From the IMG/VR virus record IMGVR_UViG_3300031578_000001: a DNA stretch of 64,000 nucleotides, one strand, 5' to 3'. Of this stretch, positions 2,384 through 61,579 are shown in pieces. The translations under genes were made by a program, and so were the position numbers. The DNA comes from a virus. The notes under the pieces were generated by a model, which was given only the letters and a program-made list of their open reading frames with translations, did not search any database and was not told the DNA's origin. The first letter of the stretch is position 1; each line of letters starts with the position of its first letter.

Positions 2384-2560
2384 ATGAACGAGAAGATCGC
2401 GGAAGCCTTCCTGGACGAGTTGGATAAGATTGGGATCTGGCCTGCCATCGCGGCGGCTGCAAGGGCGGCAGCTCCAGCGGTCATCAGCGCTATACCATCC
2501 CTGGTGGGTGGGGTGAAGAAACCCAAACCTCCCGTTTCGATAACAGGAGGCATCAAGTGA
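2384..2560 (+). CDS. 58-aa tagged small protein (MNEKIAEAFLDELDKIG...), absent from the ORF track
   Basis: ATG at 2384, TGA at 2558-2560 overlapping the next GTG start; carries the shared FxDExxKI tag. Confidence 0.75.
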   Translation: MNEKIAEAFLDELDKIGIWPAIAAAARAAAPAVISAIPSLVGGVKKPKPPVSITGGIK

Positions 2561-2784
2561 GAGACCGTATCGCCGCGGCCATGCTCGACGAACTCGGGCG
2601 TCTCGACAAAGATGGTGCAGTGGGAGCGGCCATCGGGGCTCTGGCAAAGAAGGTCGTGGGGTCGTCGGCGGCCAAGTCGGTGGGCCAAGGGCTCGCCTAT
2701 CAAGCCCCTTACATGGCCATGTCCGCGATGCAGTCCAGACAGCAGCAGAAAACACCGAAGGACACGACAGGAGGCGTCTGGTAG
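2557..2784 (+). CDS. 75-aa tagged small protein (degenerate tag AAMLDELGRL)
   Basis: GTGA coupling to upstream gene; tag variant followed by a Gly/Ala hydrophobic segment. Confidence 0.7.
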   Translation: MRDRIAAAMLDELGRLDKDGAVGAAIGALAKKVVGSSAAKSVGQGLAYQAPYMAMSAMQSRQQQKTPKDTTGGVW

Positions 2785-3171
2785 ATGGCGCTTCATCCGG
2801 ACCAGATTCGCCTTTCCGACCTTTGTGTCCAGGGAGAGTATGATTGTCCGGCTTCCATTGCCGTGGGGGATCCGGCCTACCTGGCCTCGGCCGACGCGGT
2901 GGATCTGGCCGACTGTTTGGACGCAGATAAGATGCCGGCCGAGGGGATCGTGTCGAGGAAGATAACGGCGACCAGGTGTGTTGTAGTGACTCATGGATCG
3001 GTGAAGAAATCGGGATGGAGTCTTGATCCTGACAACGAGTATTTTGTAGGATCTGGACATATCGTGAAATCGAACAACATTCCTATTTCGTTTGTCATGG
3101 TCCAATCGATCGGCTGGGCCAAGAACACAGGTGAATTAACCGTCGACACCAGGGGCGTGACCGTCAGGTAG
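2785..3171 (+). CDS. Head-decoration/cement-like protein (DUF2190-like)
   Basis: 128 aa; IAVGDPAYL...AEGIV...VVTHGSV...LDPDNEYFVG...VQSIGWA pattern recalled from DUF2190-like proteins. Confidence 0.5.
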   Translation: MALHPDQIRLSDLCVQGEYDCPASIAVGDPAYLASADAVDLADCLDADKMPAEGIVSRKITATRCVVVTHGSVKKSGWSLDPDNEYFVGSGHIVKSNNIPISFVMVQSIGWAKNTGELTVDTRGVTVR

Positions 3172-3202
3172 CACCAGGCACGTATTGTGAAGGAGCAGAG
3201 AT

Positions 3203-5992
3203 ATGCCAGCAACTTTAGTTCTCGGTTTTAATACGGAAGCATTGGTGCAGACGGCACTGACGCTGGCCGAATCCCTGGCGCTCACAGCGGGCGAGCTCGC
3301 GGTCGATGCCGGAGGCGTCGATCACGACGCACTGCTCAACTACGATGTGGACGATCACGTCGCCCACTCGAGTGTGAGCATCACCGGGGTTAACGGTTTG
3401 TCAGGAGGTGGGGATATCTCGGCGTCGAGGGATCTTGCCCTCAACATCAACGGTCTCACGAATACGGAAACTGTCCTGGCCAGCGACGATCTCGTGGCGA
3501 TCTATGACACCTCTGGTGGCTCTACGGACAAGATGACCGTCGCCAACTTCAACGCAGGACTGTCGCACGATGCCCTGAGTGGTTTCGCAGCGGATAAGCA
3601 TGTCGCCCATACCTCGGTGTCGATCGCTGCGGGTGAAGGTCTTGTAGGCGGCGGTGACGTCTCATCGACGAGGACCCTCACTACCGACTGGTCCGACCTC
3701 TCGAATACATCGGTCGCCATGGTCGCCGCGGATCTCATGGCCGTCTACGACAACGGGAACTCAAGGAACGAGAAGATCTCCTTCGCCAACTTCAACGCGT
3801 CGGTCGACCACAACGTGCTCACCAACTTCGTGGCTGACAAGCACATCGCCCACTCGACGGTCACATTCACGGCGGGTGACGGCCTCACGGGCGGTGGTGA
3901 CACTTCCGCCAGCAGATCCTTCGCCGTGGACTTCAGCGACTTCGCGGTGACCGAAGCGGCCATCGTCGCCGCTGATCTTCTCGCCTTCTACGACACCAGC
4001 GAAGGCAACATGGCCAAGATGACCTACGCCAACTTCGAGTCCAATCTCGCGATCCTGGGTTCACAGGTGGAAGCTGGAAGCCCGACGTTCGATGCCATTA
4101 CGATGAACGGGAACATTAACGCGAACCTGAACAAGATCGTGAACATGGCCGACGGAACCCTCGCGACAGACGCCGTGACCCTGTCCCAGCTCCAGGCATC
4201 GCAGTCCGGCATCACGATAAAGCCTCCTTCCCAGGCGTCCACTACGGAGGATCTCGAGATCACGACGAGTCAGACGATCGACTATCTCGATGGCCTCGAA
4301 CCTCTGACCCCGGGTGTCGGTGCGACCCTGGAACCGACAACGAACGGAGTTCTTTCGGCTATCGACGGTTACACGCCGGGGCTCGGCGACACTCTCCTGA
4401 TCAAAGATGGAGCCGGCTTTGAGGCGCAGGTCAGCCTGGCCACGGCCATCGCCGATGTCGGCGGAGCCTTGAACGGGAAATACTTCTTCATCTCATCCGC
4501 GAACGACGCCTCCAACTTCTACGTCTGGATGAACGTGGACGCCGGCGGAAACGATCCTCTCGTCGCCAATAAGACGGGAATCTCCGTTGCGATTGTTACG
4601 GATGACACAGCCACCGCCGTAGCCACCGCCGTAGCGACGGCGGTCGACGGGGAATCGGATTTCGCAGCCTCATCGATAGGCGCGAACATCACCATCACGA
4701 ACGCCGGCAACGGTCGGTCTACCGATATCGCGGACTTCAACACGGGGTTCACCGGAGTCGGTACCGACACAACCGGGAAGGGCTACGAGGTCGGAGGCTT
4801 GTACGAAGTCACAGCGGTCGGGGACGAGTCGAACCCTTGGTTGCTTACCAGGATCACGCAGTTCGACGGCGATCCAGACAACCCGACTCATGAAATACGT
4901 GAAGGTGCCCTGACTCTGGTGATTCACGGGAGCACCAACGGAAACACGCAATGGGCGGTAGCAGCCGGCGTGGAAAACGTCGACGCCATCGAGGTCGGCA
5001 TCAAGGCGATACCTTGGAACGAGTTCGCGCAGCCTTCCGTGCTTACCGCCGGGGCGGGCTTGACCGAGGCTCCGGCTCTCACGTTCAACGTGGGGGAGGG
5101 GACAGGCATCGTCGTCAACGCCAACGACGTGGCGGTCGACGTGGGAACGACCGCGAACAAGATCCTCCAGCTCAACGGTTCGGCCCAGATTCCGGCCGTG
5201 AACGGCGCTCTCCTCACCAACCTGAACGCCAGCAGCCTGACTTCGGGTCTGGCATCGTTCGCGGTGGGCGGCACCGGCTTCGACGCCTCCGTCCTCGCCG
5301 CGGGAACCCTGATCAAGACCAACGCGGGTGGAACCGCCTTCGAGGCTCTCAACCAGGGAACCGTCAACCAGGCCCTCGTGTCGGCTGGCGCAGGTGCGGC
5401 TCCGACCTTCGCGTCGCTGACTCTCGATGGCAACCTCGATCTGACCGTTACAAGGGTCGAACTTGACCAGTTGTCCGGCATTCTCGCTACCGTCACGGGC
5501 GCGAACCTCAACGCTCTGACGGAGGGTATCAGTAGCGGGACAACACCGACCACACTTCACGCTCACGATGCCCTGGTCAGCAACTCGATCTGGAACTCGG
5601 CGGTTGCTCTCACCGCCAACCTCTTCGTATCCATGGCCTCCGGAAGCGTCACGATTGCGTCGGCCAGCACGCTTGCTCTCGCTGACAGTTTGATGGGGCT
5701 CTGCTACCAGTCCTCGCTCCTCGGCGCTCCGGCCTTTGTCCAGACGGGCGAAGGGGCACATCTGATCGGAACCCTTCCGAACACTCACTCGGCCATCACT
5801 GCCGGTATAACAATCCTTTATCTGGAGCAGAACGGGGGCGCGGACATCGGGAAAGTGATCCCGGACTCAGACGTCGTCGTGACCCCAGGCAGCATCATCA
5901 AAAGGATCGGGCCTTCCGGCGCGAGTATCGCACCGAACACAGGCGGACCGGTCGCTCTGATCTATTCCCCGACATCCATCATCGTCGTGTAG
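3203..5992 (+). CDS. 929-aa fibre protein with three N-terminal repeats and a C-terminal DUF2190-like domain
   Basis: AGxGLxGGGD repeats, KIVNMADGTLATDAVT and LTAGAGLT fibre motifs, Ala/Gly/Thr-rich; SD AGGAG upstream. Confidence 0.75.
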   Translation: MPATLVLGFNTEALVQTALTLAESLALTAGELAVDAGGVDHDALLNYDVDDHVAHSSVSITGVNGLSGGGDISASRDLALNINGLTNTETVLASDDLVAIYDTSGGSTDKMTVANFNAGLSHDALSGFAADKHVAHTSVSIAAGEGLVGGGDVSSTRTLTTDWSDLSNTSVAMVAADLMAVYDNGNSRNEKISFANFNASVDHNVLTNFVADKHIAHSTVTFTAGDGLTGGGDTSASRSFAVDFSDFAVTEAAIVAADLLAFYDTSEGNMAKMTYANFESNLAILGSQVEAGSPTFDAITMNGNINANLNKIVNMADGTLATDAVTLSQLQASQSGITIKPPSQASTTEDLEITTSQTIDYLDGLEPLTPGVGATLEPTTNGVLSAIDGYTPGLGDTLLIKDGAGFEAQVSLATAIADVGGALNGKYFFISSANDASNFYVWMNVDAGGNDPLVANKTGISVAIVTDDTATAVATAVATAVDGESDFAASSIGANITITNAGNGRSTDIADFNTGFTGVGTDTTGKGYEVGGLYEVTAVGDESNPWLLTRITQFDGDPDNPTHEIREGALTLVIHGSTNGNTQWAVAAGVENVDAIEVGIKAIPWNEFAQPSVLTAGAGLTEAPALTFNVGEGTGIVVNANDVAVDVGTTANKILQLNGSAQIPAVNGALLTNLNASSLTSGLASFAVGGTGFDASVLAAGTLIKTNAGGTAFEALNQGTVNQALVSAGAGAAPTFASLTLDGNLDLTVTRVELDQLSGILATVTGANLNALTEGISSGTTPTTLHAHDALVSNSIWNSAVALTANLFVSMASGSVTIASASTLALADSLMGLCYQSSLLGAPAFVQTGEGAHLIGTLPNTHSAITAGITILYLEQNGGADIGKVIPDSDVVVTPGSIIKRIGPSGASIAPNTGGPVALIYSPTSIIVV
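3320..4048 (+). repeat. Three tandem 243-nt (81-aa) repeats within the fibre gene
   Basis: Units start at 3320 (DHDALL), 3563 (SHDALS) and 3806 (DHNVLT); each has HxAHxxV...GLxGGGDxS...DLxAxYD...ANF. Confidence 0.9.
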
Positions 5993-6014
5993 GAGCAGGG
6001 AGTAGGAGACTGAA

Positions 6015-6506: not shown

Positions 6507-6529
6507 CTTGGTGGGCGGGATAAAGAATG

Positions 6530-6562
6530 ACCGGACGGGACCAATGATCCCGTCCGGTTTTA
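6530..6562 (+). terminator. Intrinsic terminator
   Basis: Perfect 11-bp stem ACCGGACGGGA/TCCCGTCCGGT, 7-nt loop, followed by TTT. Confidence 0.7.
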
Positions 6563-6575
6563 ATTAGGTCTCGGC

Positions 6576-7613
6576 ATGACGACCATTCTCGGTTTTAACA
6601 CGACGAGTCTTATGTTCCAGGGCCACCCGCTTAGCGAGGCCGAGGACGATCTCGTCTACTTTTCCGCGGAGGGAGTGCTTGCCGTAGGTGGGTCTGGAAC
6701 TTCCAAGGCCCTAACCAAGGTCTATTCTGAACTCCTCGGACTTCCTCTTGATAATGGCGCCTTCACCATATCGAGGTCCTTAGATACGGTTTCGATGGCG
6801 AACTCGGCTCCGGCAGGAGAGACGCACTTCGGAACGCTGGTCCTTGATGCCTCCGGGCACTTTAGTCCGGTAGCGCCGGGTTTATACTATTTCGGGTATA
6901 CCGGGTTCGAGTGGCTTGAAGTGGCGACGAACACGCTTTATATCAAACCGGGAGGAGGGGCCGCCAAAGCCGGTGATATTATCACGTCGGATTCAGGTAT
7001 CGGAATAGACGTCTATCTCTATGACTCCTACCTCGGTGATGTTAAAAAATTGATGTCGGAATATGATAACCTCGCCGGGGATGTTACCGGGCTTCTGAAC
7101 AATACGGTCGTTGCCAAGATCCACGGTGATATCGTGGATACGGACGCACCTACAACTGGCGATGTATTCCAATGGAACGGGTCGGAGTGGCACCAACAGC
7201 CAATTTCGAAGGTTCGGGCACATTTGAGCACTGACTTTGCTGTTGCGCCCTCTACTTGGAAAAAAGTTCCGTTTGATACGGAGGACTATGATACTCTCTC
7301 AGAATACGATCCTTCCGCAAACTATAGGTTTACATGCAATGAGGCGGGTTATTACAAGGTTGACGCAGCAGTCAAGTGGGAATTCAGCGCTCAGGGCGAT
7401 CAAATTCTTATAGCTATCCGGCGCAACGGTTCAATAGTTGCTGGCTGCGAAAGATACGTAAGGTATGGTGTATATAATAGCCAGCAAGTTAATGATGTGA
7501 TCTATTTAACAGCATCTCAGTATCTTGAAATCTTCGTATATACCTCATCAAATAGCGCCAACCTAATTGCCAGCGAAGGATCTTCTCACTTTACTGTTCA
7601 CAGGGTTCTTTAA
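6576..7613 (+). CDS. Fibre/receptor-binding protein with C-terminal C1q/TNF-like domain
   Basis: C-terminal VRAH...WKKVPFDTEDYDT...YRFTC..AGYY.V.A.V...IRRNG...VIYLTASQYLEIFVY matches the gC1q-like pattern; N-terminus ILGFNT shared with the 3203 protein. Confidence 0.7.
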   Translation: MTTILGFNTTSLMFQGHPLSEAEDDLVYFSAEGVLAVGGSGTSKALTKVYSELLGLPLDNGAFTISRSLDTVSMANSAPAGETHFGTLVLDASGHFSPVAPGLYYFGYTGFEWLEVATNTLYIKPGGGAAKAGDIITSDSGIGIDVYLYDSYLGDVKKLMSEYDNLAGDVTGLLNNTVVAKIHGDIVDTDAPTTGDVFQWNGSEWHQQPISKVRAHLSTDFAVAPSTWKKVPFDTEDYDTLSEYDPSANYRFTCNEAGYYKVDAAVKWEFSAQGDQILIAIRRNGSIVAGCERYVRYGVYNSQQVNDVIYLTASQYLEIFVYTSSNSANLIASEGSSHFTVHRVL

Positions 7614-16663: not shown

Positions 16664-17110
16664 ATGAATGAGATTCCCAATAGCATGCAGAAACAGGAGC
16701 CGGTGAGGATCTCCAAGAGGGATCTCGACATGCTCCAGTACAACCGAGAGCTGATGCGCAGGGCCTCGCTGACCGGTCCGTCAACCATGCTCATGGGAGC
16801 CGACCTTCCCATGATCCGGACGTTTGCCCAGGAAACCTTCATGCAGATGTCCAACATGCACCCGGACCAATTCAAGGGAAAGACCGTGAGGGACTGGGAG
16901 GAAGCCATCAAGACTTTCATCCAGTCCAGACGCCCGGAGTTCAAGAACGAGATCCTCACCAAGATGAAAGCAAGGTACGCCGAGGGAGGGGACGTTCCGA
17001 ACGTGGTCCTGTCGAAGTCCATGGAACAGGAGGGTATGCAGCAGAAGAAGGCCAGTGCCCTCGACGCTCTCCTCTCCAAGGCTCTCGATGTCGTGGAGGC
17101 ATCCGAGTGA
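16664..17110 (+). CDS. 148-aa hypothetical protein
   Basis: Start reassigned to ATG 16664 (SD AGGAGG). Confidence 0.7.
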   Translation: MNEIPNSMQKQEPVRISKRDLDMLQYNRELMRRASLTGPSTMLMGADLPMIRTFAQETFMQMSNMHPDQFKGKTVRDWEEAIKTFIQSRRPEFKNEILTKMKARYAEGGDVPNVVLSKSMEQEGMQQKKASALDALLSKALDVVEASE

Positions 17111-17754
17111 TAGTGATCCAGGAAGATGAACCTATCATCATGAGAGGGTGGAAGGTAGTCGGAACGCGGCCCATTGGACACTTCATGGCCCAGGAGCGAA
17201 GGCCCACTTTCGGTAGGACCAGAGAGTACAAGGATGGTATCGTGATCAAAGAATCGATGGCCAAGGCGTTCAACGACGAATTGGATAAAATCGCTGCTGA
17301 TTACATCAATCCCACGATCGCGAGATCCAATCCGACCGTGGCTGCACACCAGAATGCTATCCCAACGAAGATTAACCCGAAGCCGAAAAATCTGACGCCG
17401 ACACCGGCACCAGCACCTTCGAAGATAACACCTCCGAAGCCCAGACGGGCTTTCTTCGGCAAACCCGCGCTGATGGGTAGTGCGGCTATAGGGGGAGCCA
17501 TGCTTCTCGGAAGTCACTTATTAAAGTCCGCGAGCGCTTTCATTGACGAGATCTCCAAGATCGCCAGGAAGATGCCCCATTTCACGGATCAGAACAGAGA
17601 TCCTAAGGCCAAGGAGGTCTACCGGAGCCTGAAGCGGGAGCATCCCGGGTGGCCTGCTGGAAAGAAGGCGAGGATCGCCGAGGCTGCCGCGAACGAAGCG
17701 GGTATGGGGGCCGGTGATCAGCCTGGAGGCATCCGGTATTCCAGGAAGAAATGA
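17107..17754 (+). CDS. 215-aa protein with two copies of the FxDExxKI tag
   Basis: AFNDELDKIA and AFIDEISKIA separate three low-complexity segments. Confidence 0.75.
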   Translation: MIVIQEDEPIIMRGWKVVGTRPIGHFMAQERRPTFGRTREYKDGIVIKESMAKAFNDELDKIAADYINPTIARSNPTVAAHQNAIPTKINPKPKNLTPTPAPAPSKITPPKPRRAFFGKPALMGSAAIGGAMLLGSHLLKSASAFIDEISKIARKMPHFTDQNRDPKAKEVYRSLKREHPGWPAGKKARIAEAAANEAGMGAGDQPGGIRYSRKK

Positions 17755-18281
17755 GTATCGAAAAGAGAATTGAATCTGCATTCGTTGATGAGATCGAGAA
17801 GATCGGGATCTCGGCTTACGGTCTCGGACGCAGTCTTGGGTTATCAAAGAGTCAGATCTTCGGCTTAGCTAAGTCCAAGAATCAGCTCGAGGATGCGATC
17901 CTTCGGCTCACAAGAGGGAAGAGGCCGAAACATATTCTCGAGAGGATTCCTCCTGGCATGGTGAGGACAAGAGCCGTGGTCAAGGGCATAGTCAACAAAC
18001 TCAAAAAGGGAGGACCTACATCGTGGGCCATGGGCAAGGTGCTGGAGCGTCCGAGGAAGCGAGCCCTTGTGGGAGGTCTAATCGGAGGTTTGATTGGATT
18101 GCCAGCGCCTCCTGGAATCCCGGCGATGATGGTGCTGGCCCCTGGAGTGGCGACTGCTACGGAGCTTCCGAGGATCTTGAGATTAGGGAAGCAGCGCCAG
18201 AAGATGATCCTTCCCAAGATCATCCAGACGATCAAGGGCCTGCCGCAGCGGGTGACGCAGGCGATCAGGAAGAGGACATAG
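17751..18281 (+). CDS. 176-aa basic tagged protein with Gly-zipper segment
   Basis: MSIEKRIESAFVDEIEKIG; LVGGLIGGLIGL. Confidence 0.75.
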   Translation: MSIEKRIESAFVDEIEKIGISAYGLGRSLGLSKSQIFGLAKSKNQLEDAILRLTRGKRPKHILERIPPGMVRTRAVVKGIVNKLKKGGPTSWAMGKVLERPRKRALVGGLIGGLIGLPAPPGIPAMMVLAPGVATATELPRILRLGKQRQKMILPKIIQTIKGLPQRVTQAIRKRT

Positions 18282-29221: not shown

Positions 29222-29581
29222 ATGCCTTTCAAGTCCGATGCTCAGAGACGCTGGATGTACGCCACTCACCCCAAGATGGCGAAGAGATGGCAGAAGGAGA
29301 CTCCGAAGGGCAAGGATCTCCCCGAGAAGGTGGCAGCGGCCTTCGTCGACGAGCTGAACAAGATCTCAGCGGCACAGGCGTTCAAACCGAGCCCTGGCCC
29401 GAAGAAGCCGGATCCGTTCAAGTCCTTCGCATCTAAGGCGCCGAGGCCGGTCCATGTTGCCGGGGTCAGGGACGCCAGTGGGAAAGGTATCGGTATCGGC
29501 TATAGCATGCAGAGCTCACCGAAGCCTTTGAAGGTCCCGGCGGGGTACGAGCAGCTCCTACGGAGAGCACCGAAGTTCTGA
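29222..29581 (+). CDS. 119-aa tagged protein beginning MPFKSDAQRRWMYATHP
   Basis: SD AGGAGG; internal tag AAFVDELNKIS. Confidence 0.75.
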   Translation: MPFKSDAQRRWMYATHPKMAKRWQKETPKGKDLPEKVAAAFVDELNKISAAQAFKPSPGPKKPDPFKSFASKAPRPVHVAGVRDASGKGIGIGYSMQSSPKPLKVPAGYEQLLRRAPKF

Positions 29582-29590
29582 GGAGGAGAA

Positions 29591-29839
29591 ATGAGAAGTC
29601 TGATTGCCACTGCCTTCGTCGACGAGCTGAGCAAGATCGCAAATGGGCTCGAGAAGGGTTCCCTCGGCAGGATGATGAGAGGCCCGAAGCACACTTATCT
29701 TAGGCCCCAGTACGCAGAGGAGATCCGGGAGCAGAGGAGGAGTCCGGAGATGAGGGGCCGAGGCAGCCGGTCCCATGAGTGGCTCAACAACGCCCGGGTG
29801 GTTGAAAGGGATATGCGGATCAGAAGAGCCTCCAGATGA
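29591..29839 (+). CDS. 82-aa Arg-rich tagged protein
   Basis: MRSLIATAFVDELSKIA; SD GGAGGAG. Confidence 0.75.
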   Translation: MRSLIATAFVDELSKIANGLEKGSLGRMMRGPKHTYLRPQYAEEIREQRRSPEMRGRGSRSHEWLNNARVVERDMRIRRASR

Positions 29840-29899: not shown

Positions 29900-30139
29900 A
29901 TGAACGACAGGATCGCGCAGTCATTCATCGACGAGCTGAACAAGATCGCCATGGGCTACGACCCTGCGAGACAGCCTCACGAACTCAATCTTCAGCGCAT
30001 GGCAGCGAAGTCAGGCGGAGGAATATCGTTCATACGAGGCGGTAAGAGTTACGGTACCCCAACCTCGATGCCGACGAATGTTCTGAAGAGCGTATCCAAG
30101 AACATCGGAGCAGGAAAGTTCAAGGTTGTGCCTCATTAG
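29900..30139 (+). CDS. 79-aa tagged protein
   Basis: MNDRIAQSFIDELNKIA. Confidence 0.75.
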   Translation: MNDRIAQSFIDELNKIAMGYDPARQPHELNLQRMAAKSGGGISFIRGGKSYGTPTSMPTNVLKSVSKNIGAGKFKVVPH

Positions 30140-42561: not shown

Positions 42562-42996
42562 ATGTTTGAGCGCAGTGATACCGTGATCGCCGCCTCTTTC
42601 TTGGACGAACTGGAGTCCTTGGAGAAGGAATCCGGTCTCAGACATCTGGGAATGAAAGCCGGTCTTGCTGCGAGCATGCTCCTTCCTGGTGCCTGCAAGA
42701 AGTCTCCTTTCCTTCCGACCGTGGAGTTGAGCCAGAAGGAGGCTCCTGCGGCTCCTGCGGCTTCTGCGAAGGGTCGTATCGTGGAGGGCCATATCGCGAA
42801 GGGCGATCAGATCGTGGCAGGTAAACCTAAGATCGGTGTTGGCAAGATCACCAAAGAGCAGAGAGAGAAAGAACAGTCGGACAAACTGCGTTCATGGTTT
42901 TCGGGGAAGCACGGTCGTGAGGGGCTCAAGGAGCATCTCAAGCCGGAGAGCGACAAGCTCTTAAAGAAGTCGGTGCGTCTCTCGGGGTCGTATTAA
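42562..42996 (+). CDS. 144-aa tagged protein (degenerate tag ASFLDELESL)
   Basis: SD GGAGG; hydrophobic LGMKAGLAASMLLPG; Lys-rich. Confidence 0.75.
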   Translation: MFERSDTVIAASFLDELESLEKESGLRHLGMKAGLAASMLLPGACKKSPFLPTVELSQKEAPAAPAASAKGRIVEGHIAKGDQIVAGKPKIGVGKITKEQREKEQSDKLRSWFSGKHGREGLKEHLKPESDKLLKKSVRLSGSY

Positions 42997-42999: not shown

Positions 43000-43338
43000 A
43001 TGGCTGCGATCGTTCCTTTCATCGATGAGCTCGAGAAGATCGCCCAGATGAATGGTAGGAAGGGCCGGAGTGGCGAGAGAGTGATTCGCAGGGTTGTGAG
43101 GATGCTCGCCGGAGAGCGACAGAAGGATAAGTCCGAGCGGCTGATCCAGCTCATCGCCCTTCTCAGCGCCGTGGTTGGCGCCAGGCTGGCCGGAGGTTCT
43201 AAGATGGATACAACTCTCATCAAGAAGCTTCTCAGAACGACAGCAGGCGGTACCGGGGGTGCGATACTCGGGAGTCACGCAGGTGTTCGGATCGAGGATC
43301 TTCTTCGCAAGCGTAAGAATAGGAGGAAATTGAAATGA
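43000..43338 (+). CDS. 112-aa basic tagged protein with hydrophobic/Gly-zipper segments
   Basis: MAAIVPFIDELEKIA; LIQLIALLSAVVGA; AGGTGGAILG. Confidence 0.75.
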   Translation: MAAIVPFIDELEKIAQMNGRKGRSGERVIRRVVRMLAGERQKDKSERLIQLIALLSAVVGARLAGGSKMDTTLIKKLLRTTAGGTGGAILGSHAGVRIEDLLRKRKNRRKLK

Positions 43339-43565
43339 TCGACAGGATCACGGATGCGTTCATCAACGAGGTGGAGAAGATCGCCCAGGGCAAAAAGTGG
43401 ATCCAGGGAGCAATCAAGCATCCGGGAGCGCTCTCCAAGAAGCTCGGTGTCCCGGAGAAGGAGAATATCCCCGCCTCGAAGCTCGATGTGAAACCTGGTG
43501 ATTCTCCTACCACCGTGCACCAGAAGAACCTGGCCAAGACCCTCAAGAAGATCTCGAAGAGGTAG
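43335..43565 (+). CDS. 76-aa tagged basic protein
   Basis: MIDRITDAFINEVEKIA followed by KKWIQGAIKHPGAL module. Confidence 0.8.
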   Translation: MIDRITDAFINEVEKIAQGKKWIQGAIKHPGALSKKLGVPEKENIPASKLDVKPGDSPTTVHQKNLAKTLKKISKR

Positions 43566-43591: not shown

Positions 43592-44692
43592 ATGAAGTTG
43601 GACATTCAGGCCATGATCAAGAACGCCAACGGCGATGAGGGGGAATCCGAGTCGAAGGGGGAGACTCCGACCGAAGAGCAGGTCATCAAGTTCCTCCAGA
43701 AGCATCCGTCACCGAAAGATAAGGTGTTCCACGAGTGGGCCGAGGAGAATGGCTTCAACGTCCATAAGGCCGAGGCCATCGCCTACAAGATCATCAGCGA
43801 CCTCGTGAGTAAGGGACGGTCGAAAGGGCAGCATCCGCCCGGGATCGCCACGGCCGACGTGGCCAAGGGTGTGAAGATCGAGGAAGAACACACGTCGAAC
43901 AAGACGATCCAGAGGAAGATCACCGACGATCACAACACCGAACTCAAGCACTACTACGATCCCAAGAAAGGCCTTCCCAAGATGGAGAAGGATCTCGAGA
44001 AGAAGGCGTTCGTGTCCGGGCTTCTGAAGGATGCCGCGGCTCCTAACATCATCAATGTCGATGTCCCCCTCTTCATCCGGATGCTCGAGTGGGCGCACGA
44101 GGACGCCAAGACGGACATGCAGCTGCACCAGGCGACGGAGAACCTCGTCGGAATGGCCGGAAAGGGTCTCCTCACGATGGACGCGTACCGTGACGCCGTG
44201 TCCGGGAAGAATATGCCTCCCCTTCCTCCGATCATGGGGAAGTCGGCTGGCGTAAAGATCGGAAGGAGCGAAGACGTGGAAAAGGAAGCCGGAAAGATGG
44301 TCAAGTGCCCCATTACGGGGAAGATGGTTCCCGAGGAAGGTCGCGGGAAAGGACCTGGAGGAGGGAAGGGAATGAAGGCTGGACGAGGGATGGGTCCTGG
44401 CAAGGGACTCGGTCGTGCGCTGATGGAGAAGAAGAGCGGTGAGTTTGACGCCGATGCCGTCATCATGGCCGGCTTCATCAACGAACTCGACAAGATCTCC
44501 ATGAGCACCGAGGAGGTCAAGAAGAAGATTTCCGCTCCCCCGACCGGCGACACCGGACCCGCTGGCAAGGGCCTCAACGATCCCAGGGCCATCGCGGCTA
44601 AGAAGGCCATAATGGAGAAAAAAGGCGAAGGAGGGAATGTCAAGGATCTCCTCGCCATCCTGAAGAAGGAACCCAGGAAGACGAAGGTGTGA
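43592..44692 (+). CDS. 366-aa mosaic protein with DUF5661-like module and internal tag
   Basis: GVKIEEEHT...ITDDH..E..HYY (DUF5661-like), DVPLFIRMLEWAHEDAKTDMQLH module, GFINELDKIS tag, KxA linkers. Confidence 0.8.
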   Translation: MKLDIQAMIKNANGDEGESESKGETPTEEQVIKFLQKHPSPKDKVFHEWAEENGFNVHKAEAIAYKIISDLVSKGRSKGQHPPGIATADVAKGVKIEEEHTSNKTIQRKITDDHNTELKHYYDPKKGLPKMEKDLEKKAFVSGLLKDAAAPNIINVDVPLFIRMLEWAHEDAKTDMQLHQATENLVGMAGKGLLTMDAYRDAVSGKNMPPLPPIMGKSAGVKIGRSEDVEKEAGKMVKCPITGKMVPEEGRGKGPGGGKGMKAGRGMGPGKGLGRALMEKKSGEFDADAVIMAGFINELDKISMSTEEVKKKISAPPTGDTGPAGKGLNDPRAIAAKKAIMEKKGEGGNVKDLLAILKKEPRKTKV

Positions 44693-44696: not shown

Positions 44697-44942
44697 ATGA
44701 TTCACGTGATCCAACAGGCCTTCAACGACGAGATCCAGAACATCGCCAAGAGAGCCCAGCTTCTTCCAGGTGCAGAGCAGGCCATGCGGACCATGGTATC
44801 CAAGGGTAAGGGCATGGCCTCCAGCAGCAAGATCCCGGAGAAGATCCGCGAGTTCATCAAAAAGCATCCGATCGCCTCAGGTGCTATCGGAGGCTATTCG
44901 CTGGCGGGCTTACTCAAGCGTAGGAGGAGCGAGGAGGAATAG
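44697..44942 (+). CDS. 81-aa tagged protein
   Basis: QAFNDEIQNIA; ASGAIGGYSLAGLL. Confidence 0.75.
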   Translation: MIHVIQQAFNDEIQNIAKRAQLLPGAEQAMRTMVSKGKGMASSSKIPEKIREFIKKHPIASGAIGGYSLAGLLKRRRSEEE

Positions 44943-45079
44943 TGGCGAGGAGAATCAACGGCAGGTCAATGCGCTCCTATGATCTCAGAAGGACAATGAT
45001 CAACGCCGTGGATCCTAAGGGGAAAGATAAGAAGAAACCAGGGCGAAAGAAGCTGATCAAGGAGAAAGAGAAAACTTGA
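44942..45079 (+). CDS. 45-aa Lys/Arg-rich peptide
   Basis: GTG start with SD GAGGAGG; fills the gap with stop/start coupling on both sides. Confidence 0.5.
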   Translation: MARRINGRSMRSYDLRRTMINAVDPKGKDKKKPGRKKLIKEKEKT

Positions 45080-45450
45080 TGGACCCGATGACTCTGTCGT
45101 TCGTCGACGAAATCGAGAAGATCTCCTCGTCTGTTGGTATGAGGACGGCCTCGAAGGATATGATCCGAAAGGCTCTCAAGGGACTGAGAAAGAGCAAGGG
45201 CGGAATCAAAGGTGCTCTCATGAGTTACGGGTTTACCATGGGAGCCGCTCCGGTTCTCGGATATATCATCGGCCGGGCTTTCGCTCCGAAGGGAGAGAAA
45301 GAATCGCGAAAAGAGGTCAAGAAGCCCGAGAGTGTGATAGGACATTCGCTCATGCCTGGGTACAGCGAGTACATTTACGGCAGGAAGTCTGTCGCTCGGG
45401 ATATCATCAGGAAGCTGGACGAGCAGAGGAAACCCAAGAAGGAGAAATGA
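45079..45450 (+). CDS. 123-aa tagged basic protein
   Basis: MDPMTLSFVDEIEKIS; hydrophobic YGFTMGAAPVLGYIIG. Confidence 0.75.
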   Translation: MDPMTLSFVDEIEKISSSVGMRTASKDMIRKALKGLRKSKGGIKGALMSYGFTMGAAPVLGYIIGRAFAPKGEKESRKEVKKPESVIGHSLMPGYSEYIYGRKSVARDIIRKLDEQRKPKKEK

Positions 45451-46519: not shown

Positions 46520-46620
46520 TGGACGTACTGTCTTGCATTATGGTCGTAGGGCTGCTGGTAAGTGGCCTTCTCATGATCATGACGGCATACATGCTGAGAA
46601 GGAAATGGAGTAAACGATGA
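46519..46620 (+). CDS. 33-aa single-TM peptide
   Basis: MDVLSCIMVVGLLVSGLLMIMTAYMLRRKWSKR; coupled on both sides. Confidence 0.55.
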   Translation: MDVLSCIMVVGLLVSGLLMIMTAYMLRRKWSKR

Positions 46621-46919
46621 ACGGAGTTCCTCAGATGCCTCTCTCAAGCATGAGGGGCAACAAGCCAGGACGACCTCCTGTCCCCGAGAGGCCAATTACG
46701 AAGATCGGCTCTACGATCCAGGCAGCGTTCCTGGATGAGATCCTGAAGATCTCCGCGGGGATGCTGTCACCCACGCCAATCGCGGACTTGGTCGCGAAAA
46801 TGTGGGCTCCAAAATCGGTCATGAAGACGGTGTATCCCGCGAACAATCCGTCGAAGAAATCAGGCTTCGTCATGCAGTCTGAGATCAAGCGACCCTCCAT
46901 CCTGAAGAGGCAGGTATGA
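46617..46919 (+). CDS. 100-aa protein with internal tag
   Basis: AAFLDEILKIS. Confidence 0.75.
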   Translation: MNGVPQMPLSSMRGNKPGRPPVPERPITKIGSTIQAAFLDEILKISAGMLSPTPIADLVAKMWAPKSVMKTVYPANNPSKKSGFVMQSEIKRPSILKRQV

Positions 46920-47281
46920 ACTGGTTCTATTCGGCGTTCAAGGATGAGATCCTGAAGATCGCGAGGATGTTCCTCGAGACGCAGGAGGATTACGCCGGGA
47001 GGCTGAAGGGCAGTTCTTCGGATCCCGGATTCGAGACCTTCAGGAAGAGACCCAAGGTCGGGATCATCGAGACGGGTAAAGGCCCTGTCCTTGTCAAGGG
47101 AAAGACTCCGGAGCAGACGGTCAAGGCCAAGATCAAGGGCAAGATTCCAGGGCTCAAGATGGCCCAGGCTGAGGAGTCCACCGCGGAAGAGGACGCCGAG
47201 AAGGAGAAGAAGCGGGTCAAGTACGCATCAATCATGAAGAGGGTCATGCTCGCCAAGCAGCGGGCGCAGATCGTCACGTAG
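46916..47281 (+). CDS. 121-aa tagged protein
   Basis: MNWFYSAFKDEILKIA; second KMA site. Confidence 0.75.
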   Translation: MNWFYSAFKDEILKIARMFLETQEDYAGRLKGSSSDPGFETFRKRPKVGIIETGKGPVLVKGKTPEQTVKAKIKGKIPGLKMAQAEESTAEEDAEKEKKRVKYASIMKRVMLAKQRAQIVT

Positions 47282-47302: not shown

Positions 47303-48055
47303 ATGGACGAAGCCGCCACCTTAGCGTTTCTGGATGAGCTCGAGAAGGTCGGGTTCGATATCCAGGGTCTCGCAGCGGGGGCGGCGAAATTCATAGGTCG
47401 TGGAGGTGCTCCACTCGTTCTTGGAGCGCTTGGCGGGAGCCTTGTCCTCTACGATGCCTTGAAGGCACGAGGAATCAAAGGCGAGATTTTCGCTGAAGAC
47501 ATCCTCGGAAAGACGAGAGGATCGAAGAAGGTGGACTCGAAGGAGTACATCAATGACCTTCAGAAGGAGAATCCACCGGATCGGTCCATCATCCCTGTTA
47601 CTACGATAAAGGATGTGAAGAAGATCACTTCCGACCCGGCATGGAACAAGCCCGTCATCAGGGATATCATGAACTCGAGGGCGAAGCATGTGATCCTGAC
47701 CGGGAGGAACGCCTTCATGGTTCCTGGCGCAAAGAGAGATTACGTCGTCGTGGCTCCGGAGGCGAACCCAAGAGTCATCGAGCACGAGGTGGGACACGCG
47801 AGAGATCTCGGAGCGAATCCTGTCACTCTCATGGAGAGGCTCCGTAGGATCCTCGGAGTATTCTGGAAACCATCCTTCGAGAAAGGGAAAATGAAGAGGG
47901 AGGAAACGGCTTGGGAGCACGCGAAGAAGACTCCCTTGAGAGACAGGGCACTCGCCACATATGAGAGAAGCTTTCATACGGGGAGGGCGACGGTCATTGC
48001 TCCCCTCGTTGGTTCGGCTCTCATCGGCGGGATTAGTGAAGGACTCAATATATAG
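47303..48055 (+). CDS. Tagged zincin-type metallopeptidase-like protein
   Basis: LAFLDELEKVG tag; VIEHEVGHARD (HExxH) and downstream EETAWEHA third-ligand-like motif; hydrophobic N- and C-terminal segments. Confidence 0.7.
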   Translation: MDEAATLAFLDELEKVGFDIQGLAAGAAKFIGRGGAPLVLGALGGSLVLYDALKARGIKGEIFAEDILGKTRGSKKVDSKEYINDLQKENPPDRSIIPVTTIKDVKKITSDPAWNKPVIRDIMNSRAKHVILTGRNAFMVPGAKRDYVVVAPEANPRVIEHEVGHARDLGANPVTLMERLRRILGVFWKPSFEKGKMKREETAWEHAKKTPLRDRALATYERSFHTGRATVIAPLVGSALIGGISEGLNI

Positions 48056-57134: not shown

Positions 57135-57162
57135 CTTTCCCTGGAACCCCCTACTGGAGGAG

Positions 57163-57699: not shown

Positions 57700-57746
57700 G
57701 TCTCCTCCGAAAAAATAGGTCAGGGAATAAGGTTTCCTTTCAATGG

Positions 57747-57755
57747 TCTTATGAC
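57747..57755 (-). promoter_or_regulatory. Class B motif GTCATAAGA
   Basis: Exact 9-mer upstream of the 57699 start. Confidence 0.65.
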
Positions 57756-57830
57756 TCAAAAGCGATTCTCTTTCGGGGTAAAAAGAAGCCGGGCTCGGAG
57801 GTCCGACTTCTCGAGAGGAGGACGTTGTGG

Positions 57831-58049
57831 TCAATAGCCTTCGCTTCTGAACACAGCCACCTGTTCCGCCTTCTTGTAGAAGGTGAACTTCGTGTAATCG
57901 GGGCCGGGATCCTTGAACAGCGATTCCTCGATGATGATGGAATCGCAGTCCTCTACCTTCTTCAGGTTTTCAGGCGAAAGCGACGGGAAGATCTCCCGCG
58001 CTTTGGCCTGAGTCTTCTCCTTGCCCTTGACAAGAATCTCTCGTGGCAT
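57831..58049 (-). CDS. 72-aa hypothetical protein
   Basis: Start reassigned to ATG 58049 (SD AAGGAG); class B motif at 58079-58087. Confidence 0.7.
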   Translation of the reverse strand: MPREILVKGKEKTQAKAREIFPSLSPENLKKVEDCDSIIIEESLFKDPGPDYTKFTFYKKAEQVAVFRSEGY

Positions 58050-58078
58050 AGGAATACTCCTTTCTCTCCTCTTAACAG

Positions 58079-58119
58079 TCTTATGACAAAAAAGAAGCGA
58101 CCACTTGGTCACTTCTTTT
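58079..58119 (-). terminator. Terminator (58088-58119) immediately followed by class B motif (58079-58087)
   Basis: AAAAGAAG-TGACC-AAGT-GGTCG-CTTCTTTTTT then GTCATAAGA. Confidence 0.7.
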
Positions 58120-58440
58120 GATCTTCACCCCCGACCGAGTGGGCCGGGGGCTTCGAAAGGAGGCCAGGAGGCCCGCCCGGATGATCGCCCAGCAGCGATG
58201 CCGCTGTGACTGCGGGGGTAGCTACCCCCCACAGCGCGTCGACCAATGTCGAAGCGATCTCCCTACCGCCGACGACGACGACCCTTTCGGATAAGCCGCC
58301 GAATCCTTCTACCGACTTGGTAGCCGACCTCGAAGGATTTCTGAGCGAGCAGGAAGACGCCGTGTACGTCTTTCGTCGTCACGGCAGCCCCCTTTCCATC
58401 ACGAATCTCGTCAGTCATCAGGACTAACGATTTCCGTGAC
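58120..58440 (-). ncRNA. Candidate ~320-nt highly structured RNA of unknown family
   Basis: At least seven stems including GAAA-capped hairpins and a multibranch domain, between a class B motif (58445-58453) and a terminator; the only ORF (58263-58418) lacks an SD. Confidence 0.5.
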
Positions 58441-58453
58441 ACTCTCTTATGAC

Positions 58454-58609
58454 TCATAGGGAATGTGTTTTTTGGTGATGACACTTTCCGAGCGTATGTT
58501 TCGTCCAGTCGCAGTTCCTGTCACACATTTTTCTTCCCTTACGGGCGGTCGCCCCGCAGGATGTGTAGAGACCTTTCTCTCTACGGAGACTCAAGGTCTC
58601 TTTCTTCAT
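58454..58609 (-). CDS. 51-aa basic Cys-containing peptide
   Basis: SD GGAGG; MKKETLSLRREKGLYTSCG...MCDRNC. Confidence 0.5.
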   Translation of the reverse strand: MKKETLSLRREKGLYTSCGATARKGRKMCDRNCDWTKHTLGKCHHQKTHSL

Positions 58610-58648
58610 CTGATCCTCCGGAGTAAAAATTGAACTCTGGGACTCAAG

Positions 58649-58676
58649 TTGATCGCAGATGTTGCAATGGTATACT
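58649..58676 (+). promoter_or_regulatory. Class A promoter TTGATC-N16-TATACT
   Basis: 62 nt before ATG 58739, at the start of the head-gene block. Confidence 0.65.
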
Positions 58677-58738
58677 TCAGATGTGACCAAGAGCTTCTCG
58701 CGACACTATCTTATGGCACAAATGGAGAGGTTTTCCCC

Positions 58739-59335
58739 ATGAGCCTACTCTTCGAGATGATGGAACGCAGAAACGCCGGGCTGATCAAGGAGGCGTCGGA
58801 TCAATCCGATTCCATCCTGGTCAAGGTCGCGAACGGACTCGAGACCGAATCCCTCTTGGCCCTGCTCGGTCCCGTGTTCCAGGCGAGCCCGCCTACGAAC
58901 ATGGACCAGATCAAGGAGCTTCTGGGTCAGCTGATCCAGGGGAAGATCCAGGCGAGCCTGACTGCCATGGAGATGAACGGTGAGGCCGATCCCCTGGAGA
59001 TCCAGAAGAAGAAGATCGAGAGGATGGTGGACATCACCCGGGGAAGGTTACGTCTCGCGGAACTCCAGAAGGATCTGATCGAGAAGCAGCAGGATCTGTC
59101 CTCCAAGATGCAATCGAATGCGGCCATGCAGGCGACCATGCAGATGCCGATGATGGGAGGACAGTCTCCCGTCCCGCCGCCGATTCCGAGTCCCGGAGGT
59201 CCGATGCCTGGCATGATGATGCCGGGAATGGCTCCTCCACCAGGGATGGCTCCCCCACCCGGGGCGCCCCCGATGCTCCCGAAGCCTCCTGCCATACCGA
59301 TGCCTGAAAGCCCGATGGAGGCGGCGTCTAAGTAG
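58739..59335 (+). CDS. 198-aa coiled-coil, Pro/Met-rich protein (scaffold/core-like, tentative)
   Basis: Start reassigned to ATG 58739 (SD GGAGAGG); KEA and KVA sites; MPG/PPG low-complexity tail. Confidence 0.7.
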   Translation: MSLLFEMMERRNAGLIKEASDQSDSILVKVANGLETESLLALLGPVFQASPPTNMDQIKELLGQLIQGKIQASLTAMEMNGEADPLEIQKKKIERMVDITRGRLRLAELQKDLIEKQQDLSSKMQSNAAMQATMQMPMMGGQSPVPPPIPSPGGPMPGMMMPGMAPPPGMAPPPGAPPMLPKPPAIPMPESPMEAASK

Positions 59336-59386
59336 TATCCAACCGGTGGGTACGAGGGGAACCGGTATCAGCCATTGAGGTGAGCA

Positions 59387-60541
59387 ATGTTCAAGATCGC
59401 AGCGGCCGTCGTCGACTTCTACGACGATCCGGATTTCCACGCCTCGGCAGAGGCCCAGGCCCTCATCAAGGAGGGGCATGTTCGCCCTCTCGAGGCGGTG
59501 TCGGAACTGCATGACCGGGACTTCGCGGTCCTGATCATGACCAAGGCCGGCACGCATCGGAAGTTCCCGATCTACAGCCCCATGGCGACGGGCCTGTCGG
59601 GCCGCTACTACGAGGACATCGAGGAGGCTCTTCCTGAGGAGATCAGGAAGGTCGCCGGATTCTTCCTCAAGAAGGCGCACGAGGAGTTCGGGCTCGCTCT
59701 GCCTCCCTCTCTCGCCGAGGAGTACGAGCCCGTGGCCCATAACGAGGTGAGCCACGAGCCGACCGAGGACATCCGGATCCGCTCGACCGAAGCCGTCGTG
59801 AAGATGGCCCAGTATTCGTTCACATCCCATAGCCGAGAGATGAAGCCGATGGAGAAGGTGGCCATGGCCATGGACGTCAATAGGGCCGTCGAGTCGTGCG
59901 GCGAGGTCCTCACGGAGCAGGAGATCTGGGATTACGTTCCGAAGGACATCTACGGTCTGCATGCCGAGGAGATGCTCGAGCAGAGGCAGACTTTATCCAA
60001 GGAAGCCGGCAAGCAGATCGAGGCCGCGTTCGAGCAGATCCTCGACGAGTTCGCCAAGATGCCTCCCACCGAAGGCCCGTTCCTCATTCACCAGTTCGAC
60101 AAGACCGCGGGCTTCGACTACCGCTACGACCTCGGGGGCGTCATGGATCCATTCTGGGGTGCGTGGGCCGGCTTCTCGCTGCCCTCGAAGGAGGCGGGCG
60201 CCACGGAGGATCTCTTCCGTCACAAGCTCGAGACTATCGCCATATACGACCGGCTCCTGAAGAGGACCTTCGGTGAGCCGTTCGTGACCAAGTTCACCCA
60301 GGATCCCAAGGGCACCTACGAGATCGCCACCCCGGAGCAGAAGAAAGTGCTCGACTTCCTGATCGCCAACATCCCGACCAAGAAGCCCGAGAATTCGGAT
60401 AAACCGATGGCTCCTGGTAGGGACGAAGCAAGCAAAGTCACCAAGGATCTAAAGAAGACCCAGGTGAAGCCTTCAGACAAGCCGGACACCATCAACGACT
60501 GGAGGGACTCGATCTACGGAGCGGTCAATGCCGGACTTTGA
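59387..60541 (+). CDS. 384-aa head-assembly-region protein
   Basis: SD GAGGTG; DRDFAVL..RKFPI motif; many KxA sites; upstream of portal. Confidence 0.7.
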   Translation: MFKIAAAVVDFYDDPDFHASAEAQALIKEGHVRPLEAVSELHDRDFAVLIMTKAGTHRKFPIYSPMATGLSGRYYEDIEEALPEEIRKVAGFFLKKAHEEFGLALPPSLAEEYEPVAHNEVSHEPTEDIRIRSTEAVVKMAQYSFTSHSREMKPMEKVAMAMDVNRAVESCGEVLTEQEIWDYVPKDIYGLHAEEMLEQRQTLSKEAGKQIEAAFEQILDEFAKMPPTEGPFLIHQFDKTAGFDYRYDLGGVMDPFWGAWAGFSLPSKEAGATEDLFRHKLETIAIYDRLLKRTFGEPFVTKFTQDPKGTYEIATPEQKKVLDFLIANIPTKKPENSDKPMAPGRDEASKVTKDLKKTQVKPSDKPDTINDWRDSIYGAVNAGL

Positions 60542-61136
60542 TCTCTTTATCAAGAAGAATGTCCGGCCAGACGCCTACAGGGACTTGTTCGACCGGACCT
60601 TCGAACGCCAATGGATCGAATGGGAGCCCGAGACTCTCCGTATGGAGATCCCGAGGACCTGGGGCGTGCATCCGATCGAAGAGGTCTTCGAAAAGATCAT
60701 GGCCCTCCAGACTTTTCTTAGGACGGACCTCTTCTGGGACGATGTCATTGCCTTCGAGAACATTGTCCTGGCTTTCAACGATCTATTCGTGGACCCTGAT
60801 CTCGTGCAGCAGGCGCTTCCGCGGGAGATCGCGTTCGGTGTCGTGGTCGCGAATCGCCTAAACACGAAGTCCGACTTCGTGCAGGACATCGTCGAGTACA
60901 TCAGGGCGAGCCATCGGGAGGAGGGGATCCTGGTCTACCATCCGGAACTCAAGATGTTCCAGCCGGAGTATTCGGACGACTTCAGAAAGGGCATTGCTGC
61001 CCGGGTGCAGGAACTCATGGCAGTAGGATCGCAGGTCCATGAGGACATGAGTGAAGAAGACTCAGTGCAGGTACAGTTCGCCAAGACGATGGACTGCGTC
61101 CTGTATGTCAGCGATAAGATGGAGCGGGCACAATGA
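60528..61136 (+). CDS. 202-aa portal-adjacent protein of unknown function
   Basis: WIEWEPETL...FWDDVIAFE; overlaps both neighbours. Confidence 0.75.
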   Translation: MPDFDLFIKKNVRPDAYRDLFDRTFERQWIEWEPETLRMEIPRTWGVHPIEEVFEKIMALQTFLRTDLFWDDVIAFENIVLAFNDLFVDPDLVQQALPREIAFGVVVANRLNTKSDFVQDIVEYIRASHREEGILVYHPELKMFQPEYSDDFRKGIAARVQELMAVGSQVHEDMSEEDSVQVQFAKTMDCVLYVSDKMERAQ

Positions 61137-61579
61137 AGACGTTCTACAGCGCATTCGTCGACGATCTCGAGAAGATCGCGATTCCAGGAAAGCCGTTGGG
61201 GAGACTCATGGAGCGGGCCAGTGCTTCGGAGCCCAAAATCAAGTTTTTCAAATCGATAGGGAATCGTGAGAAAGTGATGGAGGGGATCGACGAAGCCGGC
61301 ACAGCGGCTGGGAAGAGATCGGAATTGGCATCTGGTTTCAGGTTAGCAAGAAAGTATCTCGGTCCGGCTACAGTAAGAAGCCGTCTTGCGCAAATCAGGG
61401 CCGAGGTAGGCGCCTCGCAGAAATACGGAAAAGCCAGGGCTGCCATGCCAATCTCGGTTTCAGAGAAAAGCGGTCTCTCGAAGAAGCATCAGGTCAAATC
61501 TGAATCAGCAGGCGTGTCAGCATTCAAAGACCAGAGCAAAAAGGAAATGGAGCGGAGCCTGAAGAAGGGCGAATTGTAG
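61133..61579 (+). CDS. 148-aa basic tagged protein
   Basis: MKTFYSAFVDDLEKIA. Confidence 0.8.
   Translation: MKTFYSAFVDDLEKIAIPGKPLGRLMERASASEPKIKFFKSIGNREKVMEGIDEAGTAAGKRSELASGFRLARKYLGPATVRSRLAQIRAEVGASQKYGKARAAMPISVSEKSGLSKKHQVKSESAGVSAFKDQSKKEMERSLKKGEL

Follow-up and report, generated by a model that had tools for sequence, protein, structure and literature searches.

Why should 17 otherwise unrelated open reading frames (ORFs) of a single phage carry one and the same short acidic peptide? The question is raised by a 64,000-nucleotide stretch (hereafter the window) of the IMG/VR virus record IMGVR_UViG_3300031578_000001, which derives from an uncultured phage with a genome of about 182 kb. 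Eighteen copies of the peptide, here called the tag, occur in these 17 ORFs and define the consensus (A/S/G/P)-F-x-(D/N)-(E/D)-(L/I/V)-x-K-(I/V)-(A/S/G). Our analyses of the window and of related genomes suggest, with a probability of roughly 0.6, that the tagged proteins are substrates of the head-maturation protease and reside inside the phage head; that the tag itself is the portable signal loading them there is a more tentative proposal, to which we would give somewhat less than even odds.

The peptide was pointed out in an earlier sequence-only reading of the window, and the basic description given there holds. The translations contain 18 copies in 17 ORFs, as had been counted, and a relaxed regular expression for the motif, run over all six frames, recovers 17 matches, all on the plus strand and none on the minus strand, to which the degenerate copy in the ORF starting at 42562 is to be added. 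The number expected by chance is far lower, as shuffling the residues of the proteins called in the window never produced more than three matches, the mean being 0.3. A longer consensus, reaching further upstream, applies to this genome: M-x-(D/E)-(K/R)-I-(A/T)-x-(A/S)-F-x-D-E-(L/I)-x-K-I-(A/S/G). The tag is mostly N-terminal, again as previously stated, with its Phe at residue 7–13 in 13 of the 17 ORFs; internal copies are found in the ORFs starting at 17107 (Phe at residues 55 and 145), 29222 (residue 41), 46617 (residue 38) and 43592 (residue 295). What follows the tag is indeed unrelated from one ORF to another, no pair of the 17 proteins being aligned by BLASTP at E < 0.05 once the tag had been masked.

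The codons of the tag differ synonymously between copies (GCC/GCG/GCA/GCT, GAC/GAT, GAG/GAA, CTG/CTC/TTG), so selection appears to act on the peptide rather than on the DNA, in keeping with the conservation at the protein level asserted before; for the same reason we rejected the possibility that the tag is a DNA-level repeat or a regulatory site. A Shine-Dalgarno-like sequence is present close upstream of most tagged ORFs. The amphipathic helix that had been proposed for the peptide receives moderate support from six window tags, whose helical hydrophobic moments (0.33–0.64) rank among the top 0.5–13% of shuffled versions, but none from the tag of a related phage, G002 (complete genome, 174.6 kb, 40% G+C). 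A membrane-binding amphipathic helix was rejected as an interpretation because the net charge of the tag is about −2.3.

A clue to the role of the tag comes from the head modules of related phages, in which a motif corresponding to its last five residues, L-x-K-I-A, recurs. In G001, the closest relative among the genomes compared (155 kb, 51% identity in the portal protein, structural module syntenic with positions 47–26249 of the window), the terminase, capsid protein and protease genes were located with the help of PHROGs and of homology to Salmonella phage Arash. K-x-(A/G/S) is situated exactly six residues ahead of the conserved core of the capsid protein, at about residue 25, in 84 of the 85 homologues that have the core motif; the capsid protein of the window's own genome is not among the 120 homologues listed. 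The small acidic proteins encoded between the protease and capsid genes of G001 each contain three to five hydrophobic-x-K-x-A motifs (e.g. VLEKIAAV, EMEKVAEE and DLEKIASD), their larger neighbours in that region contain eight or nine, and the protease–capsid interval of G002 shows the same pattern. The G002 capsid protein starts ..FNEAFLEKIATI, which comes near to a full tag. The Pfam models of T4 gp21 and gp23 retrieved nothing from the relatives, nor did they from control genomes.

The full tag is likewise found within the head module. Three loci (L045, L011 and L016) share a gene order consisting of terminase, a protein with many K-x-A sites, a small hydrophobic protein, the protease, an acidic protein of 190–210 amino acids, scaffold-like genes and the capsid protein, and the first gene after the protease encodes G-R-x-x-A-R-A-F-x-D-E-L-x-K-I-A at about residue 82. 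A full tag in this first post-protease gene occurs in L045, L048, L060 and L070, in L011, L016, L068 and L014, and in L032, L034 and L053, with L016 having two tag-bearing paralogues after its protease. According to a comparison of coordinates, roughly 11 related genomes have a tag no more than about 1.5 kb from the protease gene and in the same orientation as it. The tag is two-layered: its K-x-A half recurs in every presumed substrate of the protease, and its A-F-x-D-E half is present on cargo-like proteins, at one scaffold site and, in part, in one capsid protein.

The protease also bears the motif. K30-x-A32 (residues 30–32) is invariant in nine protease sequences, L-x-K-x-A-S follows directly behind the catalytic domain, and a third invariant Lys is found some 30 residues further on. 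An AlphaFold model of the protease of a relative is folded from residue 36 to residue 240 with both flanks disordered, which places the K-x-A sites at the domain borders; gp21 and the herpesvirus assemblins release themselves at the borders of the catalytic domain. The best structural match of this model is T4 gp21 (5jbl; Z 9.7, r.m.s.d. 2.9 Å over 129 residues, Foldseek probability 1.0). Herpesvirus assemblins are retrieved with Z 5–7, but they say little on their own because MCE-domain proteins score alike (Z 6–7). Of 32 related records, 30 contain the protease family, and no complete tag-bearing genome lacks it (12 of 12). As a separate observation, the protease genes of G007, G012, G017, G026 and G027 encode products of 938–1679 amino acids in which the profile matches fall into two to four separated pieces, a layout consistent with intein insertions; matches to the portal homologues of G007 (an ORF of 1124 amino acids) and G027 (2098 amino acids) are broken up in the same manner, which suggests that putative inteins also reside inside portal genes of this clade.

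How far does the tag extend beyond the window? A degenerate DNA pattern for A-F-x-D-E-L-x-K-I-A identified 75 IMG/VR stretches, mostly on contigs of 100–200 kb, and the tag is again mainly N-terminal and clustered in these loci. A somewhat less strict pattern matched 118 times in 29 large IMG/VR contigs, the reversed-pattern control just once, and in 23 of these contigs all tag copies are placed on one strand. A profile built from 30 tags matched at least 120 metagenomic proteins bearing the tag, none of them from a cultured phage. The metagenomic copies yield the logo (A/G)-F-x-D-E-L-E-K-I-A followed by A/T/G/S, and the Phe falls within the first 12 residues in 97 of 141 copies. These 141 tags were chosen by a regular expression for the motif, so the residue frequencies obtained from them (F 93%, D 99%, E 99%, K 100%; final residue A 82%, S 14%, G 4%; next residue A/T/G/S 65%) somewhat overstate the conservation. 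The tag is maintained over genomes of 40–57% G+C. Tags within one genome share 8–10 further residues upstream (MNxFExG in G001, xFxQIKEAA in G002), and these lineage-specific residues would be explicable by co-evolution with a lineage-specific partner.

The proteins behind the tags have a marked common character in spite of their unrelated sequences. The body has an isoelectric point (pI) of at least 9.9 in all 17 tagged ORFs of the window, and several bodies include Gly/Ala-rich hydrophobic segments; among metagenomic proteins tagged once, at the N-terminus, pI exceeds 9 in 92 of 95, the share being 38–40% for the small ORFs of G001 and G002 that have no tag, some of which are spurious. Removal of the acidic tag would free strongly basic peptides resembling the internal proteins of T4. 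In the relatives the tag is also attached to recognizable enzymes: it stands at the head of SNF2 helicases in L010 and L077 and of MazG-plus-P-loop, GNAT-plus-glyoxalase and pyrophosphatase-like proteins, and it is placed after a ligase to which a LigD phosphoesterase domain is joined. A metagenomic protein of 751 amino acids (P0004, from a JGI metagenome) reads LigD phosphoesterase, tag, ligase, tag, His-phosphatase, and another (P0001) has four tags, each preceding a hydrophobic unit; judged from the sequences, tags at such unit borders fit well with a processing site. Fusions of a LigD 3′-phosphoesterase and an ATP-dependent DNA ligase, with tags between or behind the domains, are found in P0004 and in loci L007 and L005, and may represent a packaged kit for the repair of DNA ends. 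Some of the metagenomic tagged proteins contain DUF6321 behind the tag.

Putting these observations together, we propose to regard the tag as a short acidic propeptide or linker. The phage's head-maturation protease, of the T4 gp21 type, would most likely use the C-terminal half, (L/I)-x-K-(I/V)-(A/S/G), as its cutting site; by analogy with the assemblins the scissile bond would follow the small residue, or else it would follow the Lys. The N-terminal half, (A/G)-F-x-D-E, common to one scaffold site in the relatives, would most likely permit co-assembly with the scaffold core of the prohead. Late in infection, tagged proteins would thus be incorporated into the prohead core as a cargo made up mostly of small, very basic proteins, many of them Gly-rich and hydrophobic, and in the relatives of enzymes too. 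The protease would then strip off the acidic tag, or separate the units at internal tags, leaving the basic bodies with the packaged DNA, with which they would probably be ejected. Cleavage, capsid loading and ejection are steps that we infer. Extended to the whole clade of uncultured phages of about 100–200 kb, the proposal becomes bolder, and we hold it with slightly more doubt than confidence: these phages may load an open-ended, swappable set of proteins for co-injection by means of one portable acidic tag of 10–16 residues, which the scaffold core would recognize along with a head protease of the T4 type and of a so far undescribed Lys-x-Ala specificity. Among the cargo would be basic peptides that coat DNA, peptides active on membranes, DNA-repair enzymes, SNF2 helicases, MazG and GNAT proteins, sometimes in the form of polyproteins. 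In the literature searched we found neither the tag nor a Lys-x-Ala rule described, which is weak evidence of absence.

Several observations weigh against the proposal. The Lys is replaced in three window copies, by Arg (ORF at 2557), Asn (44697) and Ser (42562). The plus-strand placement of all copies, which the sequence-only reading had stated, stands. Three of the five tag clusters sit amid tail-fibre-like genes (YadA-stalk, C1q/BclA-like and Ig-domain), away from the head module. The link to the head module was drawn from relatives at 25–50% identity, the phage's own head module being located outside the window. The cultured relatives Arash, Vibrio phage D69 and phage G possess the protease and K-x-A sites but no full tag. 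About one-fifth of the tag copies are internal, between domains, which is unexpected for a strictly N-terminal address label, and a tagged ligase, helicase or MazG protein would also suit a role in the cytoplasm. The earlier interpretation of the peptide as a modular capsid-targeting label subject to cleavage is, on balance, partly supported by these sequence comparisons: the K-x-A motif is shared with head proteins, but the label is not strictly N-terminal.

The main alternative is that the tag is an extended protease site without any addressing role, its AFxDE half merely aiding the cut, and that the tagged ORFs encode scaffold-like core proteins or polyprotein units reaching the prohead in some other way. 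The distribution of the motif gives this view some appeal, since capsid protein, scaffold and protease share no more than the K-x-A half, the internal tags between domains resemble polyprotein linkers, and the cultured relatives get by with K-x-A alone. We nevertheless consider it unlikely, given that the AFxDE half is conserved as strongly as K-x-A and yet missing from most head-module sites, that the upstream residues shared within each genome look as if they formed a surface evolving in step with a partner peculiar to the lineage, and that unrelated enzymes would need a route of entry into the prohead in order to meet a protease acting inside it. Short acidic-hydrophobic peptides act elsewhere as hub-binding motifs, and the tag might similarly serve for docking on a non-capsid hub (a replication/repair factory, a chaperone or a membrane), the likeness of the tag to head sites being coincidental. 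The DNA and nucleotide enzymes tagged in the relatives (ligase, SNF2 helicase, MazG, pyrophosphatase, His-phosphatase) would suit such a hub, as would the Gly-zipper-like hydrophobic segments in many of the bodies. A full tag in a scaffold gene between the protease and capsid genes is difficult to reconcile with this idea, which we regard as improbable also because the tagged genes cluster with portal and structural genes, because the acidic tag is unlike membrane-binding amphipathic helices, and because the tags are confined to the late/structural strand, the gene blocks on the other strand having none in the window, G001 and G002.

Two further explanations appear very improbable. One supposes that the conserved Lys is covalently modified by a phage enzyme, for example through ubiquitin-like conjugation, a thought encouraged by the Lys being the best-conserved residue of the 141 motif-selected tags and by the presence of ThiF-like genes in G001, G002 and G003. 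ThiF/E1-like genes occur in only three of the 12 complete tag-bearing genomes, and they are present in the tagless Arash and D69, so that the tag and E1 do not co-occur as ubiquitin-like conjugation would demand of a general explanation, and it was rejected as such; moreover, the motif is found where maturation cleavage classically takes place: at the N-terminus of the capsid protein, within the scaffold and at the borders of the protease domain. The ThiF/E1-like genes are of some interest in themselves: unlinked to the tag, they occur in eight of 32 phages of the wider group, among them G001 (86883–87476), G002 (60715–61314), G003 (132946–133488) and two cultured ones, Arash (176809–177291) and Vibrio phage D69 (173999–174484), and they possibly represent a phage ubiquitin-like system. 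The other explanation takes the tag to be a remnant of common descent, or of gene conversion, among duplicated small genes, with no function shared between them. Tandem clustering of the tagged genes and N-termini more alike within a genome than between genomes are what duplication would produce, but the bodies have no detectable similarity to each other, the tag has been kept despite synonymous change across genomes of 40–57% G+C, and its fusion partners include unrelated families of enzymes as well as the scaffold.

Precedents for a head-loading and processing signal, on the grounds of analogy, are offered by several other viruses. In T4 a capsid-targeting sequence of about 10 residues, carried by the internal proteins IPII and IPIII, is trimmed by the prohead protease gp21, according to the account in PMC9958956 (Mullaney and Black 1996 cited there). 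The system described here resembles it in that a short N-terminal peptide is common to otherwise unrelated, basic, non-essential-looking proteins (13 of the 17 window ORFs), in that the end of the peptide is a motif present also in the capsid protein, scaffold and protease, as seen in the relatives, and in that a relative encodes a protease of the gp21 fold. It differs in that the consensus (A/G)-F-x-D-E-L-x-K-I-A has no sequence relation to the T4 peptide MKTYQEFIAE, and in that the tag ends in K-x-A and the T4 site in (L/I)-x-E; the similarity to MKTYQEFIAE of the MKTFYSAF start of the ORF at 61133, to which the sequence-only reading had drawn attention, concerns this single ORF and is treated as coincidence. 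The window alone has at least 17 bearers, compared to a handful in T4, and the tag, known here from sequence only, is also found internally, in the scaffold, on enzymes and across an uncultured clade.

In the phiKZ-like phage SPN3US, gp245 cuts after A-X-E, and many head-internal or ejection proteins have N-terminal propeptides, some of 20–24 residues, that are removed by the gp21-like protease (PMC10052503). Short N-terminal propeptides and genes for head proteins dispersed over a large genome are features in common with the present case, but the SPN3US propeptides share just the cleavage tripeptide, in contrast to a conserved tag of 10–16 residues, and the specificity is for Glu (A-X-E) and not K-x-(A/S/G). 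Herpesvirus assemblins cut their maturation and release sites after Ala and before Ser. They belong to the same protease superfamily, and their sites flank the protease domain and are present in the scaffold. The tag has a small final residue, with a further small residue behind it in 65% of the motif-selected copies; on the other hand, their hosts are eukaryotic, a Lys two positions before the Ala is generally outside the assemblin consensus, and we know of no cargo-tag system in these viruses. Finally, the 30 N-terminal residues of DarB of phage P1 suffice to load a reporter (PMC9024508). There, an N-terminal signal loads a large anti-restriction enzyme of the helicase/methylase type, which brings to mind the tagged SNF2-type helicases of the relatives, but the Dar proteins are without a consensus tag, and removal of their signal by cleavage is not known. 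The tag system would thus seem to work in the manner of those of T4, SPN3US and P1 while being a sequence relative of none of them.

The cultured relative Arash was rejected as a model for the tag, which it does not have. Its gp206 (130093–134670), an RNA polymerase beta-like protein, begins with MPKSASE and so has K-x-A at residues 3–5; this is the most abundant protein of the Arash virion proteome (PMC10585845). The "structural protein" labels of Arash derive from a permissive proteome of 116 proteins.

Turning to the individual tagged ORFs of the window, all of which are on the plus strand, searches of Pfam, PHROGs and PDB sequences gave nothing useful for the tagged proteins and for most of their large neighbours. 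The window itself has no megablast match in INPHARED and no exact 56-mer match in IMG/VR, and a protein of 787 amino acids had no relative in the related-locus search. The first tagged ORF (2384..2560, 58 amino acids) contains MNEKIAEAFLDELDKIG and has an Ala-rich hydrophobic body with a pI of 11.3; it is followed by one of 75 amino acids (2557..2784) with the degenerate tag AAMLDELGRLD. Between tag clusters there are two tail-fibre-like genes (3203–5992 and 6576–7613), one with a YadA-stalk repeat (Pfam, E 7e-9) and the other with a C1q/BclA-like C-terminal domain, which PHROGs searches assign to tail-fibre families. The protein encoded at 17107..17754 (215 amino acids) has a polyprotein-like layout with its two internal tags (F55 and F145), and the next (17751..18281, 176 amino acids) has an N-terminal tag and a Gly-rich hydrophobic segment (pI 12.0).

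In the ORF at 29222..29581 (119 amino acids) the tag at residue 41 stands behind a conserved unit of 40 amino acids (29222–29341; MPFKSDAQRRWMYATHP..; phrog_1375, E 2e-5), which recurs in at least eight related loci, including L007, L067 and L008. Two ORFs with N-terminal tags follow, at 29591..29839 (82 amino acids, body pI 11.6) and at 29900..30139 (79 amino acids, MNDRIAQSFIDELNKIA). The largest series starts with a protein of 144 amino acids (42562..42996), whose degenerate tag, ASFLDELESLE, is without Lys, and continues with two N-terminally tagged ones, at 43000..43338 (112 amino acids, hydrophobic segment, pI 12.0) and 43335..43565 (76 amino acids, MIDRITDAFINEVEKIA). In the 366-amino-acid product of 43592..44692, the tag at residue 295 splits a weakly DUF5661-like N-terminal part from a basic tail of 63 amino acids. 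Further on are an ORF of 81 amino acids (44697..44942) with the tag variant AFNDEIQNIA, one of 123 amino acids (45079..45450) with an N-terminal tag and a Gly/Ala hydrophobic segment, one of 100 amino acids (46617..46919) in which a Pro-rich leader precedes the tag at residue 38, and one of 121 amino acids (46916..47281) with the N-terminal tag MNWFYSAFKDEILKIA. The N-terminally tagged protein encoded at 47303..48055 (250 amino acids) has the HExxH motif HEVGH and two Gly-rich hydrophobic segments; it matched no family in Pfam or PHROGs, and only unnamed viral clusters in the ESM Atlas (score 0.84), and may be a packaged metallopeptidase.

The last tagged ORF (61133..61579, 148 amino acids) lies immediately upstream of the portal gene (61601..63559, plus strand, 652 amino acids, start apparently TTG). 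The identity of the portal rests on tblastn matches, its structure model being of low confidence (predicted local distance difference test score of 58): it matches the annotated portal of Arash (E 4e-55), weakly that of Bacillus phage G, and also unannotated genes in Vibrio phages D69, D181 and D148. Proximity of the portal gene to tagged ones is conserved in 10 or more related loci, and tagged genes adjoin the portal gene in at least five lineages. Close to the portal gene, an untagged protein of 384 amino acids (59387..60541, plus strand) has nine hydrophobic-x-K-x-(A/S/G) sites, i.e. 2.3 per 100 amino acids, compared to 0–0.65 in the other untagged window proteins of at least 300 amino acids. 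The density is 0–0.4 in tail-like proteins of the window, being high solely in the tags and in the 384-amino-acid protein. Homologues of the latter adjoin the portal in G001, L023, L049 and L041, and its sequence suggests that it is probably a heavily processed protein of the head core.

Protein sorting to the scaffold core is still "mysterious" in T4, of which few proteins bear the signal (PMC9958956). In the phages considered here, a single sharply defined tag is borne by dozens of proteins in a genome and by hundreds over the clade. If the role proposed here for the tag is correct, it would provide a natural programmable packaging signal and a way into this sorting, with the tag in the scaffold itself indicating a concrete, testable partner, and it would add a new Lys-x-Ala cleavage rule to the gp21/assemblin protease superfamily. 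A compact tag of this kind might also be used for loading foreign proteins into capsids. In large phages that have not been cultured, proteins residing in the head or injected from it would become readable from sequence, and what could be read in this way would suggest that these phages inject DNA-repair and possibly anti-defence enzymes.

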